The position numbers were made by a program, and so were the translations under genes. This document shows positions 3,098 to 47,925 of a stretch of 64,000 nucleotides of DNA, piece after piece (the first letter of the stretch is position 1; every line of letters starts with the position of its first letter). The stretch is from Escherichia phage BEU50: sequence record OM632671.1, one strand, 5' to 3'. The notes beneath the pieces were generated by a model. The model worked only from the letters and a program-made list of their open reading frames with translations, was not told where the DNA came from and made no database searches.

Positions 3098-4060
3098 ATG
3101 ATTACTATCAATTCCAAAGAACACATTCTAGAACAGAAATATCGTCCTTCTTCCATTGACGAATGTATTCTGCCTGCGTATGACCATGAAACATTCAAGT
3201 CTTTAGTATCTAAAGGAAAACTTCCTCATATTATTTTGCACTCTCCTTCTCCTGGTACAGGTAAAACAACCGTAGCAAAAGCATTATGTAACGATATCAA
3301 CGCTGAAATGATGTTCGTCAACGGTTCTGATTGTAAGATTGATTTTGTGCGTGGTCCGTTAACTGCATTCGCTCGTTCAGTCTCAATGGAAGGCAAGCCG
3401 AAAGTTATCGTTATCGATGAATTTGACCGTAGTGGCCTTGCTGAATCACAACGGCACCTTCGTACATTCATGGAAGAATTCTCTAGTAACTGTTCTATTA
3501 TTATTACTGCTAACAACATCGATGGAATTATTGAACCATTACGTAGTCGTTGTCGAGTTATCGAATTCGGACGTCCAACCGAAGAAGATAAAATCTCGAT
3601 GATGAAGAAAATGATTCATCGTATGGTTGAAATCTGTAAGAACGAAAATATCGAAATCGCTGATATGAAAGTTGTTGCAGCTCTGGTTAAAAAGAACTTC
3701 CCGGACTTTCGTCGTACAATTGGACAATTAGACCAGTACTCGTCTAAAGGTGTTCTCGATGCAGGTATTCTGTCTATCGTAACTAATGACCGTGGCACAG
3801 TCTCTGATGTTATCGAAGCAATGAAGAACAAAGATATCAAACAACTTCGTGCATTAGCTCCAAAATATGCTGCAGATTATTCATGGTTCATCGATAAATT
3901 AGTTTCAGAATGTTATGACCAAGTTGCACCTGGTAAAAGTATTATTTCGCTTTACGAAATTGCAGGCGAAAATAATAAGTTTCATGGACTAGCTAGTAAT
4001 ATTGAATTACATGTTATGTATATGCTTCTTCAATTGACTTGTGAACTGACTTGGAAATAA
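3098..4060 (+). CDS. 44: Clamp loader large subunit gp44 (AAA+)
   Basis: Walker [15 protein letters not shown] Walker B, SRC motif ([10 protein letters not shown]); synteny 45-44-62. Confidence 0.9.
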
Positions 4061-18601: not shown

Positions 18602-18656
18602 GTTTACTTCTCCAGTAGTTGTGTTATTATAGATCTATCAACTACTGGAGAACAAA

Positions 18657-18974
18657 ATGAAAACCATCGATTGTAAAGCAGAATTTAAGATTTTTTATCA
18701 CGGTTCAAGTAGTTCAGCTAACATCGAAAACATGCTTTGTCCTCCTGAGGAAACAGGAGTTCTGTCTGAAACTGGACGTAAGAAAAACTTGGATCGTGTA
18801 TTCTTTACTGAAGATATCGGTTTAGCAAAGATTTATGCAGGACGAGCAGCACGCTCTTATGGAGGTGAACCACGTCTCTACCGAGTAATTTCTCCGGTAG
18901 ATGTAGTTCAAATGAATGATACTAAAGGCGCTACAGTTTATCACGCTGAATGGGCATTTTGCGAGGAAATATGA
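18657..18974 (+). CDS. Hypothetical protein (105 aa)
   Basis: ORF with ATG; no confident family. Confidence 0.4.
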   Translation: MKTIDCKAEFKIFYHGSSSSANIENMLCPPEETGVLSETGRKKNLDRVFFTEDIGLAKIYAGRAARSYGGEPRLYRVISPVDVVQMNDTKGATVYHAEWAFCEEI

Positions 18975-27788: not shown

Positions 27789-29098
27789 CATTTGATGATT
27801 TGACTGAAGGTCAGAAAAACGCCTTCAACGTTGTTATGAACGCTATTAAAGAAAAGAAACATCACGTAACTATTAATGGGCCTGCTGGTACAGGTAAAAC
27901 AACCCTTACTAGATTCATCGTTGAAGCCCTTATTTCTTCTGGAGAATCAGGTATTATTTTAGCAGCCCCTACACATGCTGCTAAAAAGGTTCTAAGCAAA
28001 CTTGCTGGTCAAGAAGCATCGACTATTCATAGCATTCTTAAAATCAACCCAACTACATACGAAGAAAACGTATTGTTTGAACAGAAAAAGGTTCCCGACT
28101 TAGCCTTGTGCCGTGTACTGTTATTTGATGAAGCGTCAATGTGCGACCGTTCTCTGTTTAAAATAATGTTAGCTAGTATCCCTAAATGGTGTACAGTAAT
28201 TGGAATCGGCGACCGATGCCAGATTCGACCGGTAGACCCAGGCGAATCAACTGCGTATCTAAGTCCTTTCTTCACTCACAAAGACTTCGTGCAATGCAAC
28301 CTTACAGAAGTTAAACGTAGCAATGCACCAATTATTGATGTTGCGACTGATATTCGTAATGGCAAATGGATTTACGATAAAGTAGTTGATGGGCACGGTG
28401 TTCATGGATATACAGACCTTAAATCGTATATGATGAACTATTTTAACGTTGTTAAAACTCCTGAAGACCTTTTCGAAAATCGAATGATGGCATTCACAAA
28501 TAAGTCAGTGGACAAGTTAAATTCAATTATTCGCCGAAAACTTCTTGAAACAGAAAAACCATTTATTAAAGACGAAGTCATTGTTCTACAAGAGCCATTT
28601 ACTAAGACATATAAGCTAGATGGTAAAAATATGACCGAAATGCTTTTCAATAACGGGCAATTCGTTCGTATTCGAGATGCTGTAGAAACGTCTACATTCG
28701 TTAAAGCACGTGGTGTTTCAGGCGAATATATGATACGATACTGGAATCTTACAGTAGAAACATATGGGGATGATGAAGAATATATCCGCGAAGATATAAA
28801 GGTTATTTCTTCTGAAGAAGAGCTTTATAAATTCAATTTGTTTTTGGCTAAGACTGCAGAAACATACAAATTCTGGAATAAAGGTGGTAAAGCTCCATGG
28901 AGCGAATTCTGGGATGCTAAACGTATGTTCACTAAGGTGAAGGCACTACCTGTATCAACCTTCCATAAGGCCCAGGGTATGTCTGTTGACACGGCCTTTG
29001 TTTATACACCGTGTATCCATTATGCTGATTCAGAATTAGCTAAACAGTTATTGTATGTCGGCACGACTCGTGGTCGTTTTGACGTCCATTTTATTTGA
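27785..29098 (+). CDS. dda: SF1 DNA helicase Dda
   Basis: Walker A NGPAGTGKTT; 437 aa; RecD-like motifs; T4 synteny with dexA. Confidence 0.9.
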   Translation: MTFDDLTEGQKNAFNVVMNAIKEKKHHVTINGPAGTGKTTLTRFIVEALISSGESGIILAAPTHAAKKVLSKLAGQEASTIHSILKINPTTYEENVLFEQKKVPDLALCRVLLFDEASMCDRSLFKIMLASIPKWCTVIGIGDRCQIRPVDPGESTAYLSPFFTHKDFVQCNLTEVKRSNAPIIDVATDIRNGKWIYDKVVDGHGVHGYTDLKSYMMNYFNVVKTPEDLFENRMMAFTNKSVDKLNSIIRRKLLETEKPFIKDEVIVLQEPFTKTYKLDGKNMTEMLFNNGQFVRIRDAVETSTFVKARGVSGEYMIRYWNLTVETYGDDEEYIREDIKVISSEEELYKFNLFLAKTAETYKFWNKGGKAPWSEFWDAKRMFTKVKALPVSTFHKAQGMSVDTAFVYTPCIHYADSELAKQLLYVGTTRGRFDVHFI

Positions 29099-31296: not shown

Positions 31297-31325
31297 GTTT
31301 ACTTCTCCTCTGGTTTTGGTATTAT
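31297..31325 (+). promoter_or_regulatory. Early promoter (GTTTAC, 17 nt, TATTAT)
   Basis: Upstream of the 31352 start. Confidence 0.35.
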
Positions 31326-31351
31326 AACCATATCAACCAGAGGAGAATAAT

Positions 31352-31876
31352 ATGTTAGTTTACCGCGTAGAACGTAGTTTTTGTACTCAACGTGAATCAT
31401 TACCAGGAATTGCTATCGAAGACGGTAAAGCCGTCAGAATTTGGGAAACCTCTTGGAATAAAGAACCTCGCTCACCATACGGTTGGTCGGGCACCGACAA
31501 CTCTGAAGAAACATGGGAGTTCCTTGATAAACATGGAATAATCTCAGGTAATTTCTACCATCACGGCGACAACTATAACGTCCCTAATCGTCCTACAGTA
31601 AATGAAGACAAACTCCTTGAACAAAATATCTTAAGATACTATAGAATTGAGCACACATTTGAATTGAGTGAAGATTGGGCTCAAGGGTTCTATTTTGGAT
31701 TTGAAAGTGTTGACGCGGTTTATGCATGGTTTGATGACCAGGTGGATGTTGAACTCTTGAAAGCTAAAGGATACTACATCGCGGTCTATGAAGCACCTGA
31801 TTTCATCCTCGGAAGTTGTCAATTAATGTTCAGACGTTCATTGGCAGAACAAGTTGATTTTATTTTGCTAAAATGA
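31352..31876 (+). CDS. Hypothetical protein (174 aa)
   Basis: ORF with RBS AGAGGAGAA. Confidence 0.4.
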   Translation: MLVYRVERSFCTQRESLPGIAIEDGKAVRIWETSWNKEPRSPYGWSGTDNSEETWEFLDKHGIISGNFYHHGDNYNVPNRPTVNEDKLLEQNILRYYRIEHTFELSEDWAQGFYFGFESVDAVYAWFDDQVDVELLKAKGYYIAVYEAPDFILGSCQLMFRRSLAEQVDFILLK

Positions 31877-43009: not shown

Positions 43010-43591
43010 ATGGCGAGTTTAATTTTTACTTACGCAGCAATGAATGCTGGAAAATCTGCTTCTCTTTTGACTGCTGCACATAATTATAAAGAACGCGGAA
43101 TGAGTGTATTAGTTCTTAAGCCTGCTATTGATACTCGCGATTCTGTCTGTGAAGTCGTTTCTCGCATTGGAATTAAGCAGGAAGCGAATATTATTACAGA
43201 TGATATGGATATTTTCGAGTTCTATAAATGGGCTGAAGCACAAAAAGATATTCATTGCGTATTTGTAGATGAAGCTCAGTTTTTAAAAACTGAACAGGTG
43301 CATCAATTAAGTCGAATTGTTGATACATATAATGTTCCTGTTATGGCTTATGGATTAAGGACTGATTTCGCTGGAAAATTGTTTGAAGGTTCTAAAGAAC
43401 TTTTAGCGATTGCAGATAAACTTATTGAACTAAAGGCAGTTTGTCATTGCGGCAAAAAAGCGATTATGACAGCTCGATTAATGGAAGATGGAACACCAGT
43501 TAAAGAAGGTAATCAAATCTGTATTGGTGATGAAATTTATGTTTCTTTGTGTAGAAAACATTGGAACGAATTAACTAAAAAGCTCGGTTAG
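43010..43591 (+). CDS. tk: Thymidine kinase
   Basis: Walker A AAMNAGKSASLL, DEAQF, C-terminal zinc-binding CHCG...C..H; 193 aa. Confidence 0.9.
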   Translation: MASLIFTYAAMNAGKSASLLTAAHNYKERGMSVLVLKPAIDTRDSVCEVVSRIGIKQEANIITDDMDIFEFYKWAEAQKDIHCVFVDEAQFLKTEQVHQLSRIVDTYNVPVMAYGLRTDFAGKLFEGSKELLAIADKLIELKAVCHCGKKAIMTARLMEDGTPVKEGNQICIGDEIYVSLCRKHWNELTKKLG

Positions 43592-43858: not shown

Positions 43859-44152
43859 ATGGCCTTAAAAGCAACGGCACTATTTGCCATGCTAGGATTA
43901 GCGTTTGCTTTATCTCCATCGATTGAAGCGAATGTCGATCCTCATTTTGATAAATTTATGGAATCTGGTATTAGACACGTTTATATGCTTTTTGAAAATA
44001 AAAGCGTAGAATCATCTGAACAGTTCTATAGTTTTATGCGAACGACTTATAAAAATGACCCGTGCTCTTCTGATTTTGAATGTATAGAGCGAGGCGCGGA
44101 GATGGCACAATCATACGCTAGAATTATGAACATTAAATTGGAGACTGAATGA
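43859..44152 (+). CDS. Secreted hypothetical protein (97 aa)
   Basis: Signal peptide MALKATALFAMLGLAFALSPSIEA. Confidence 0.35.
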   Translation: MALKATALFAMLGLAFALSPSIEANVDPHFDKFMESGIRHVYMLFENKSVESSEQFYSFMRTTYKNDPCSSDFECIERGAEMAQSYARIMNIKLETE

Positions 44153-44535
44153 AATTCAGCGACTTTTCACAAAGTGGAAAACCTTCAAAGGCAGATGAAT
44201 ACTTAGGTTTATTAATGGCTGCACAAGCTTATTTTCATTCTGCGCATTTTGAAACTAAAAGTTATGCTAGACACAAAGCATACGATTTTATTTTCTCCGA
44301 GTTGCCAGATTTGATTGATAAATTTGGTGAGCAATATTTGGGGTATTCTGGTAGAAAATACACACCTTCAATTCCAGATGCTAGTAAACTTCCTACCGAC
44401 ACAATTAAAATGATTGATCGCATACTAGACCAATCTAACAGCATTTATAAAGAAATGCCTCCAGCCATTCAAAGCACGATAGATGATATCACTGGGATGT
44501 TTTATCAGAGTAAATATCTTCTTTCCCTCGAATAA
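44149..44535 (+). CDS. Hypothetical protein (128 aa)
   Basis: ORF with ATGA overlap. Confidence 0.35.
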
Positions 44536-44539
44536 CGTT

Positions 44540-44563
44540 AGTCTCCTTCGGGAGACTTTTTTC
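44540..44563 (+). terminator. Intrinsic terminator (AGUCUCC-UUCG-GGAGACU followed by U6)
   Basis: 7-bp stem, UUCG loop, T6. Confidence 0.7.
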
Positions 44564-44572
44564 ATTTTACCG

Positions 44573-44602
44573 GTTTACTTTCCATTTGAGCTGTGATACT
44601 AT
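44573..44602 (+). promoter_or_regulatory. Early promoter (GTTTAC, 18 nt, TACTAT)
   Basis: Immediately after the terminator, upstream of the 44631 ATG. Confidence 0.4.
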
Positions 44603-44630: not shown

Positions 44631-44819
44631 ATGAAAATTGAAGCACTTAATCAAGAAGGAAATATCTACGTCATCATTAATGGTGATTTTTTCGTCGACA
44701 TGGATGAAGTTACCAGTGAAGAACTTGTAGAACTTCTTAAGAAACGTTATAATATGTGTGATGAAGTTGCAACTCACATGGCGTGTGCAATATTCTCTCT
44801 TTCATATGTGGTGGAATAA
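44631..44819 (+). CDS. Hypothetical protein (62 aa)
   Basis: ATG preceded by AAGAGGAGAA. Confidence 0.3.
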
Positions 44820-45022
44820 TGAAAACTGAAAAGCAAGCGGATAAAATTAAGGAATTAGTGGCTTCAATTCGTAAAGCAGATGAAGAGCTGATTGACTTTG
44901 CTTGGTATTCATCGGGTATTTCGAATAAAGGCATTAAAGACTTTGAAACTAAAGTTGATAATGCTTTAGAAGCGTTAGATATGTTTCTTGATGAAATTAT
45001 CGATCATAATACGAGAGTTTAA
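44819..45022 (+). CDS. Hypothetical protein (67 aa), starts MKTEKQ within a 26-nt repeat
   Basis: ATG embedded in GGTGGAATAATGAAAACTGAAAAGCA. Confidence 0.3.
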   Translation: MKTEKQADKIKELVASIRKADEELIDFAWYSSGISNKGIKDFETKVDNALEALDMFLDEIIDHNTRV

Positions 45023-45024
45023 GT

Positions 45025-45219
45025 ATGCTAACACGTGAACAGTTTGAAAAAATCATTAAATTAGCACGTGATGTTGAAATAGATTCATATCAATTAGCAG
45101 TTGAGCATTGTGAAGGATATTCATACGATGGTATAGAATCAGCTAAAAGGGATTTGGATAAATCTAAAGCTAAGTTAGTCCAATATCTTGAAATGATTAG
45201 GTGGAATAATGAAAACTGA
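45025..45219 (+). CDS. Hypothetical protein (64 aa)
   Basis: ORF following 44819..45022. Confidence 0.3.
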   Translation: MLTREQFEKIIKLARDVEIDSYQLAVEHCEGYSYDGIESAKRDLDKSKAKLVQYLEMIRWNNEN

Positions 45220-45382
45220 AAAGCAGATGTTTTTAATGAAACTAATTGAAGAATATGCTAATGCAGTTTCTGACTATGAGCGTTCTTCTCGGGAAAGAGG
45301 TACAGCTTTCGCCAAAGAAGAAATGAAAATCATGGTTGATGCTCACACAAAGCTTCAGAATTTTATTGAAAACAACATTTAA
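45209..45382 (+). CDS. Hypothetical protein (57 aa), starts MKTEKQ within the second copy of the 26-nt repeat
   Basis: ATG embedded in second copy of GGTGGAATAATGAAAACTGAAAAGCA. Confidence 0.3.
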   Translation: MKTEKQMFLMKLIEEYANAVSDYERSSRERGTAFAKEEMKIMVDAHTKLQNFIENNI

Positions 45383-45870
45383 CGGTTTACAAGTTGGCAA
45401 GGTTATGGTATAGTAATCTTGTCAACTGTCAAGGAGAAGAGAATGAAAGTTTTGTTTGTTGTGTATGTAATGATTCAATATAATTACCCAATGTTTACTT
45501 ATAATCTGGTGAACAACATTATTGATATTATTCAAAGGAGTATGTAATTGTGAGTGAGTCGAAGAGAATCAATATGAAACGATTAGTATTAGAAGTTAGT
45601 CCGCTTTTTGGTGAATTGGCTATAGAAAAAGTAAATAACATGTATCGTTTGACGCAAGAAGACGATATGCTATATTTTACGCCTAGTGAAATCATTCATT
45701 TAACCCAAATTGAATATCCTTATACTGATAAAATAGTAAGTATCAATGATGAGCACAAAATTCATTGCTCGTTTGATTGAAGTTGAAGCCCAAATTGCAG
45801 AACACACCAAATTGTTAAAAGCTCTTAATGCAAAAGCAAATGGTTTACGTAATGCTATTGAGGTATTGAA

Positions 45871-46185
45871 ATGAAAAAGCGTCTATTAGAAGACATTGCA
45901 GCTTCAAGTAATTCCAGTTTAATTAAAATTATTATGGCCGGTGAAGAAGACGATCTGGAAATGCGTGGAAAGATTTATGGTTGTGATGATTATAGCAGCC
46001 CTATTAATTGGGATTCTGTAATGGTCATGGTTGAACGTCGCGAAAGGGCTTCTAAAAACGTTCCTAATTGCCCTGAATGTGGAACTGAACAGGTGCAATT
46101 AGTCCATTGGCAGACTAATAATCTTCGTTATAAATGTCGCCATTGTAAACACCGATTTGACCGAGAAGAAAATGACAAAGCGTAA
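45871..46185 (+). CDS. Small zinc-ribbon protein (104 aa)
   Basis: CPECG ... CRHCKH. Confidence 0.35.
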
Positions 46186-47168: not shown

Positions 47169-47672
47169 TTGATATGGAGATGGGACATGATTACAGTAGA
47201 TAAGTGGTTTAGAATTAATCGTGTTGATACAGGGCTATGTAATTACTGGCCGGAACTTAGTGCAGGTACTGTCTTTAAAGTTCGTGAACTTGCAAAAGAA
47301 TGTGAAGATGATATAGAACCTGATACTGGAATTATTGAAATTGAACTTTCTGATGGAAAGATTATTAACATCTATGATAAGCCAATTACGTATTGGTGCT
47401 TGTGGAATACTGAATCCGTTGAAAATGGCGAAATTGAAGAAGTTGTAGAGAGAACTAGCCAAGATGCTCAGAAGCCTAAAGCCGCTTTTCAAGGTGAACG
47501 TATTTCATACGCATTAGCTAAATTAGCTGCACAAGAAAATAACGATGGTTATGAAGGAAATTTAATGCAAGCTGCCGCAGAGTACATTGAATGGCTTGAA
47601 ACTCAAATTTCTTTTTCTGACCAAATGATTCGGCAATATAAGCGATTGCATCAAATGTTTTACAATACTTGA
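47169..47672 (+). CDS. Hypothetical protein (about 160 aa)
   Basis: ORF; its C-terminus (MIRQYKRLHQMFYNT) is repeated downstream. Confidence 0.35.
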   Translation: MIWRWDMITVDKWFRINRVDTGLCNYWPELSAGTVFKVRELAKECEDDIEPDTGIIEIELSDGKIINIYDKPITYWCLWNTESVENGEIEEVVERTSQDAQKPKAAFQGERISYALAKLAAQENNDGYEGNLMQAAAEYIEWLETQISFSDQMIRQYKRLHQMFYNT

Positions 47673-47925
47673 AAAAACTCAAAATTCTTTTTCTGACAAG
47701 GCATTTTAATGAAAACCGAATTGGTTTATACTGAAAAGTTAAATGGCGGTAAGGTTTGGAAACTTTTTATTAAAGGACATTCTACGGACCCTCATATGAC
47801 CACTTGCGTAGGAACCTATTCTCGTCCTACTAAAAAGATGATTCGACAGTATAAACGATTGCATCGAATGTTTTACAATACTTAAATAATAAATACCCTT
47901 ATCTATTTAAGGTAAGGGTTTTATT

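Follow-up and report, generated by a model that had tools for sequence, protein, structure and literature searches.

By sequence identity, the window analyzed here, a 64-kb stretch of Escherichia phage BEU50 (OM632671.1), is an early region of a Tequatrovirus (T4-like) genome; the locus under study is 90-98% identical to ~500 Tequatrovirus genomes over a 951-nt query. Early transcription follows the + strand of the window, and gene names were transferred from the RB51 and T4 annotations. All on this strand, the genes run in the order tk (43010-43591), rI.1 (between tk and rI), rI (43859-44152), rI.-1 (44149-44535), a terminator/promoter, mobD.5, mobD.4, mobD.3, mobD.2a, and a cassette with a promoter inside a stem. 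The composite terminator and T4-type early promoter (44540..44602, + strand) lies upstream of mobD.5 and consists of a hairpin (44540-44557) with a T-run, a GTTTAC element (44573-44578), and a -10 element ending at 44602. The first gene of the early transcription unit is mobD.5 (44631..44819, 62 aa, phrog_3024), which is read from an early promoter of its own and gives a RegB-insensitive transcript (PMC1702504). It is followed by mobD.4 (44819..45022, 67 aa), mobD.3 (45025..45219, 64 aa, N-terminus MLTREQ), and mobD.2a (45209..45382, 57 aa), whose start is overlapped by mobD.3 over 11 nt. The N-terminus of MobD.4 reads MKTEKQ in this phage, and MISIEQ, MISVEQ, MVSVEQ, or MTRIEQ in about 98% of relatives.

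The products of mobD.4, mobD.3, and mobD.2a all match the Pfam family DUF7438 above its gathering cut-off of 25 bits (56.3 bits, E 4e-15; 63.1 bits, E 3e-17; and 57.9 bits, E 1e-15, respectively), and the three genes are therefore taken as tandem paralogs. Aligned in register, the three N-termini read M-K/L/I-T/S-E/R/I-K/E-Q. The paralogy of MobD.4 and MobD.2a rests on the Pfam profile, because a BLASTP comparison of the two proteins finds a match limited to the six converted residues described below. RefSeq and other records give MobD.4 and MobD.3 a functional-sounding label, and name rI.-1 a "starvation-inducible transcriptional regulator"; since Pfam yields only DUF7438 for MobD.4 and MobD.3, their RefSeq label looks like a collision of gene names, not a function. 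The reference phage T4 (NC_000866) departs from the window at two points within these genes. Its mobD.4 lacks 21 nt, in frame, that the window and most relatives have (window 44908-44928), and a 1-nt deletion in its mobD.2a (window 45311) cuts the protein to 38 aa, compared with 57 aa elsewhere, so that T4 carries a degraded mobD.2a.

Two starts in this block are joined by a perfect direct repeat, GGTGGAATAATGAAAACTGAAAAGCA, which a sequence-only reading of the window had reported and which the present search confirmed as exactly two + strand copies at 44810-44835 and 45200-45225. No third copy was found in the window with up to 3 mismatches allowed, and 100 shuffles gave an expectation of 0 additional copies by chance. 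Among the exact direct repeats of the 64-kb window the 26-mer is the longest, the runner-up measuring 20 nt, and the longest repeat in 30 second-order Markov simulations was 15-20 nt. Reading of the open reading frames also upheld the claim that both copies carry a GGTGG and the ATG of an ORF starting MKTEKQ (44819-45022, 67 aa, and 45209-45382, 57 aa). The first copy (44810..44835, + strand) spans the end of mobD.5, the SD-like GGTGG, and codons 1-6 of mobD.4, and its TAA (44817-44819) is the mobD.5 stop, overlapping the mobD.4 ATG (TAATG). The second copy (45200..45225, + strand) spans the last codons of mobD.3 in another frame (RWNNEN*), the SD-like GGTGG, and codons 1-6 of mobD.2a. A stop had been assigned to each copy, which is correct as such for the first; in the second the TAA is out of frame, as mobD.3 reads AGG TGG AAT AAT GAA AAC TGA and ends at the TGA at 45217-45219, inside the repeat. 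Five other phages, each sequenced independently (SHFML-26, ASO78A, ESCO58, ph0021, and PsgM02F), contain this repeat in perfect form, and VEc20 has a 25/26 version; the repeat is thus not an assembly artefact, which the earlier reading had named as the refuting outcome.

Comparison with relatives separates the repeat into an old part and a young part. In T4, RB51, RB14, G2133, O157 typing phage 7, and three IMG/VR contigs, identity between the mobD.4 and mobD.2a starts extends only over GGTGGAATAATG(A), that is, over 12-13 nt, and mobD.4 continues after this core as ATTAGTATCGAA, ATTAGTATAGAG, ATTAGTGTAGAG, GTTAGTGTAGAG, or ACTAGAATTGAA, encoding MISIEQ, MISVEQ, MVSVEQ, or MTRIEQ. The 13-nt core at the mobD.5/mobD.4 junction, GGTGGAATAATGA (44810..44822, + strand), comprises the SD, the stop, the ATG, and one A, and is identical in 16/16 relatives inspected, including Gaprivervirus vB_EcoM_RZ. 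At the other gene, mobD.2a starts with AAAACTGAAAA(G/A)CAG (MKTEKQ) in every Tequatrovirus sequence inspected. Of the genomes in which a mobD.4 could be detected, that of vB_EcoM_RZ is the most distant (57% identity); its junction between the mobD.5 end and the core is the same as in the window, catatgtggtggaataATGATTACTTTAGAACAA, its MobD.4 begins MITLEQ, and no mobD.2a was found in it. With the core and MITLEQ present in this outgroup, the MISIEQ-type start with the core is read as ancestral and MKTEKQ at mobD.4 as derived. The alignments thus show a derived state at the recipient, mobD.4, and an ancestral state at the donor, mobD.2a.

The young part is a complex change from ATTAGT(A/G)TAGAG to AAAACTGAAAAG at the mobD.4 start. 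Between 44822 and 44833 the window differs from RB51, RB14, G2133, and T4 at 6, 6, 5, and 8 positions, respectively, each to the base of the paralog, against a background divergence of 2.5-4.4% from these four genomes over 1.4 kb. After window correction, a cluster of this kind would fall by chance on the bases of the paralog, at any place in the alignment, with a probability of ~5e-4 to 1e-9. The minimal converted tract is the 9 nt at 44823..44831 (+ strand), in which 5 (versus G2133), 6 (versus RB51 and RB14), or 8 (versus T4) substitutions all lead to the mobD.2a base, and the maximal tract is the full 26 nt of 44810-44835; the range of 9-26 nt follows because 44809 and 44836 are still of the mobD.4 type. 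The converted stretch ends precisely at these two positions, where donor and recipient next differ, and the patch proper comprises codons 2-5 of mobD.4. Donor and recipient match at 26/26 positions (44810-44835 versus 45200-45225), synonymous positions included, whereas G2133-type starts match at 21/26, with 13 identical nucleotides, 9 containing 5 mismatches, and then AGCA. The tract is accordingly flanked by identity on both sides, by the 13-nt core upstream and by AGCA (RB51/RB14/G2133-type) or CA (T4-type) downstream. Outside the patch, the body of mobD.4 is the RB51/RB14 haplotype.

The frequency of the converted allele was assessed with a 61-nt probe over the mobD.4 start, designed so that a megablast seed arises from the converted form only. 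The converted start occurs in 7/496 records, which represent 6 phages: VEc20, SHFML-26 (GenBank and RefSeq copies), ASO78A, ESCO58, ph0021, and PsgM02F. The remaining 489 records match the probe at 80-95% identity, 480 of them at 80-90%, and by this measure those 480 are unconverted. Two non-carriers that were inspected, G2133 (90.2%) and RB14 (88.5%), have ordinary MISVEQ/MVSVEQ alleles. In a large protein collection, three MKTEKQ alleles of MobD.4 are found on 2, 11, and 5 contigs, and MISIEQ alleles that are identical to two of them save for the patch are found on 64 and 18. Judged from these alleles, the MKTEKQ form of mobD.4 is rare and derived. Among its carriers the left flank (44767-44801) occurs in two haplotypes and the protein in three backgrounds, from which it follows that either a single event was spread by recombination or at least two independent events took place; the alignments are compatible with the one and with the other. 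One carrier is recorded as "Pseudomonas phage PsgM02F" (OR584013.1) with the host Pseudomonas coronafaciens, and its locus is ~97% identical to those of coliphage Tequatroviruses and has the same rare patch; on these sequence grounds the host assignment looks doubtful.

Ancestral state, donor, direction of transfer, and tract limits are all shown by the aligned genomes, and on this basis we consider it quite probable that the repeat is a 13-nt ancestral core that was made into a perfect 26-mer by templated overwriting of the mobD.4 start from mobD.2a. The molecular mechanism is inferred. In the ancestor, the starts of mobD.4 and mobD.2a had the 13-nt initiation core in common and, beyond it, were imperfectly similar. 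In the lineage of the window, a short tract of newly synthesized or repaired DNA at the start of mobD.4 would then have been templated by the mobD.2a start, 390 nt downstream, with the 13-nt core as upstream anchor and AGCA (4 nt, in an ancestor of the RB51/RB14/G2133 type) as downstream anchor. Codons 2-5 would thereby have been rewritten in frame and in register, from I-S-I/V-E to K-T-E-K, leaving the repeat perfect over 26 nt. One route to this outcome would be a replicative template switch, a concept of which a general account is given in PMC8604942: the primer end would dissociate, pair with the ectopic core, copy 9-13 nt, and return. Another would be a very short ectopic gene conversion during the recombination-dependent replication of T4. 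The return anchor is short, at 2-4 nt, and the sequences fit either a template switch or a heteroduplex-based conversion. The donor could equally have been the mobD.2a of a co-infecting phage instead of the resident copy. The event itself is of a known and ordinary kind.

The proposed overwriting bears directly on the earlier description of the repeat as a likely recombination scar. That wording holds insofar as 44823-44835 would be the footprint of templated copying over codons 2-5 of mobD.4; it fails for a scar left by a deletion, insertion, or duplication, as gene order and the 390-nt spacing are those of unpatched relatives. The other half of the description, that of a module-shuffling site, found no support. 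A working recombination substrate for the gain or loss of mobD.4 and mobD.3, or a scar from such an exchange, is conceivable on sequence logic: a crossover between the copies would excise both genes cleanly without damage to the stop of mobD.5 or the start of mobD.2a. In T4, deletions are known to end at short direct repeats, as in the classical rII deletions. The region is partly dispensable, a deletion from nrdC.11 to mobD.3 being viable in T4 (PMC9825161). Junctions of this kind were sought in 50,697 phage records with 41-nt megablast probes for which no normal genome could supply the 28-nt seed. The deletion-junction probe matched only the 7 patch-carrying records, at their normal copy 1, so that no genome in this set joins mobD.5 to mobD.2a through the repeat (a 390-bp deletion), and the probe for a duplication or a reverse conversion gave zero matches in the same records. 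An exact-pattern scan likewise found no converted or deleted junction in the IMG/VR and JGI metagenomes, among just 4 and 6 contigs with the locus, respectively. The comparison of related genomes for deletions or duplications between the copies, which the sequence-only reading had proposed as a check, thus returned none, and the 390-nt spacing was constant in all relatives compared. The window's own deletion of about 8.7 kb, described below, used another site. We therefore regard a shuffling site or its scar as highly improbable.

Other explanations concern the origin of the MKTEKQ start or its purpose. Tequatrovirus genomes are mosaic and the flank haplotypes around the patch vary among carriers, as expected had this start been imported by homologous recombination from a diverged, unsampled phage, its identity to mobD.2a then reflecting old shared ancestry. 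An import is nevertheless difficult to reconcile with a patch of 9-26 nt that has no linked flanking divergence and sits in an mobD.4 body of the RB51/RB14 haplotype, with agreement of all 26 nt, synonymous positions included, with the resident mobD.2a, or with the lack of any native MKTEKQ mobD.4 start (ATGAAAACTGAAAAGCAA) among 504 tblastn-positive records and the MITLEQ of the outgroup, and we consider it very unlikely. That the patch arose as a sequencing or assembly error, or from five to eight independent point mutations that happened to match the paralog, has a negligible probability given its recurrence in 6 phages that were sequenced independently and come from different countries, and given the chance values stated above. 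A selected cis-element, such as a common initiation region for equal translation or a shared target of a regulator (a RegA-like repressor, RegB/S1, or a small RNA), with the patch fixed for the co-regulation of mobD.4 with mobD.2a, would agree with the invariance of the 13-nt core across genera, and the patch does bring A-rich codons 2-5, AAA being often favorable as the second codon. The patch is, however, missing from about 98% of relatives, and folding predicts the same structure and accessibility for the initiation region of mobD.4 whether or not it is present (MFE -5.4 versus -5.9 to -7.0 kcal/mol; P(unpaired) 0.51 versus 0.47-0.55). No RegB/S1 site was recognized in the repeat (GGUGGAAUAAUGAA) either: the consensus is GGAGRAYARAA, the repeat reads GGAAUAAUGAA, and its sole GGA is followed by A, not by the G or U of a GGAG/GGAU with A-rich consensus, GGAA being very poorly cut by RegB (PMC1702504). 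A cis-element of this kind is hardly credible on this evidence. With predicted accessibility unchanged and the RegB/S1 site lacking, the patch is probably neutral. The opposite, namely that it arose more than once, as the two left-flank haplotypes and three protein backgrounds would allow, and was kept because the N-terminus or initiation region of MobD.2a alters the expression or function of MobD.4, or that the perfect repeat is a clean excision site that sheds mobD.4 and mobD.3 at appreciable frequency, appears very unlikely to us.

Sequences that do resemble published shuffling motifs lie close by. PeSLs have been described as motifs of modular shuffling (PMC2839356, PMC4122927), and a PeSL-like cassette is found downstream of mobD.2a (45385..45428, + strand), with a GTTTAC -35 element and then a 15-bp stem that encloses a TATAGT -10 element. 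A 38-nt copy of its first part (45385-45422) recurs at 87% identity elsewhere in SHFML-26, as does a 43-nt copy of the terminator/promoter upstream of mobD.5 (44543-44584) at 95% identity (record 81445-81487), between the annotation of a small capsid-protein gene and its neighbor. It was this 43-nt copy that produced an apparent second place for the 951-nt query in 108/501 records, and a duplication of the locus was ruled out. By its sequence, the element at 44543-44584 belongs to the PeSL type of repeat, as a composite of terminator and promoter. The repeats of this neighborhood that do fit the shuffling motifs are these two cassettes, which flank mobD.5-mobD.2a on either side, and not the 26-mer. 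At the 26-mer itself no strong sigma-70-like early promoter was detected, the only nearby hit being a weak 9/12 consensus match at 44819-44847 in a region no richer in such matches than shuffles; neither copy contains a stem-loop terminator, and the initiation region folds weakly (-5.4 kcal/mol). Among close relatives, no indels or replacements bounded by the repeat and no junction variants were seen. In the window at large, PeSL-like cassettes were noted at three places, 18602-18659, 31297-31354, and the 45385-45428 already mentioned, each with a GTTTAC -35 element, a 13-15-bp stem around the -10 element, an SD, and an ATG; their folding z-scores range from -4.5 to -6.2, and the first shares 76% identity with the second over 58 nt.

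A genuine loss of modules is also visible nearby. Relative to SHFML-26, the window has an 8.74-kb deletion (record 111892-120631) that runs from inside mobD.1 to inside nrdC.3, with its junction at 45762-45766, so that nrdC.2, nrdC.1, and nrdC come directly after mobD.2. What remains of mobD.1 is a truncated ORF, mobD.1' (45550-45780), and a fused ORF has newly arisen (45746-45874). The junction is an imperfect 5-nt microhomology, TCA(T/A)T, and its two halves are adjacent in 0/509 related phage records. Seen in these alignments, the deletion is the only large one in the window and the one real event of module loss near the locus, and it made no use of the 26-nt repeat.

Further repeats were noted in the window. 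A 52-nt direct repeat with 88% identity (47625-47676 and 47838-47889) spans, in two neighboring ORFs, the 3' end (…MIRQYKRLHQMFYNT*) and the bases after it, and this pair may represent further tandem paralogs with a homogenized end. Between 53678 and 54654 lies a family of four 68-nt direct repeats with 63-72% identity, which includes a 20-mer found exactly at both 54410 and 54518 as well as 17-mers, and looks like an internally repetitive gene. Another exact 20-mer, CTGGTACAGGTAAAACAACC, occurs at the distant sites 3252-3271 and 27885-27904; it reads GTGKTT and therefore probably reflects the P-loop codons of two ATPase genes, not a mobile repeat.

The repeat reveals no new system or function. 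Its value lies in a clean natural case of self-editing of a T4-like genome from a nearby imperfect repeat, in which donor, recipient, polarity, and tract limits can all be read, and in an event type that laboratory genetics of T4 predicts and that is rarely pointed out in wild genomes. It also calls for caution, as short perfect repeats at phage gene starts need not be module boundaries, and a multi-base difference between close phages can stem from a single event, a point of importance to phylogenetics and to estimates of mutation rates.

Set against known systems, the 26-mer resembles the PeSL shuffling cassettes in being a short repeated sequence where genes meet, in a hyperplastic part of a T4-like genome; unlike them, it lacks a promoter and a stem-loop, it is not scattered over the genome, and no indel among relatives is bounded by it. 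Its length makes it a potential end-point for a deletion of the kind known between short direct repeats in T4, but no deletion between the present copies was seen in about 500 genomes. Ectopic gene conversion between paralogs, or concerted evolution in tandem families, is likewise non-reciprocal, in register, and in frame, with an unaltered donor; the tract here is extremely short (9-26 nt), however, and the paralogs are otherwise unalignable as DNA, the homology available for pairing being the 13-nt initiation core only. Templated mutagenesis in T4 provides another parallel. Schultz and Drake (2008, Genetics 178:661) reportedly described mutations of this phage in which several bases are changed together on the template of an imperfect direct repeat, scored in an rI reporter, and in T4 experiments such mutagenesis is said to depend on the polymerase, gp32, gp41, and UvsX. 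Whereas those were laboratory mutations, the present case is a natural polymorphism at paralog starts 390 nt apart, inferred by comparative genomics only. In both, several close base changes appear at once and turn an imperfect repeat into one identical to a nearby donor, short flanking identities are available for the exit and return of a primer end, and the phages belong to the same group.
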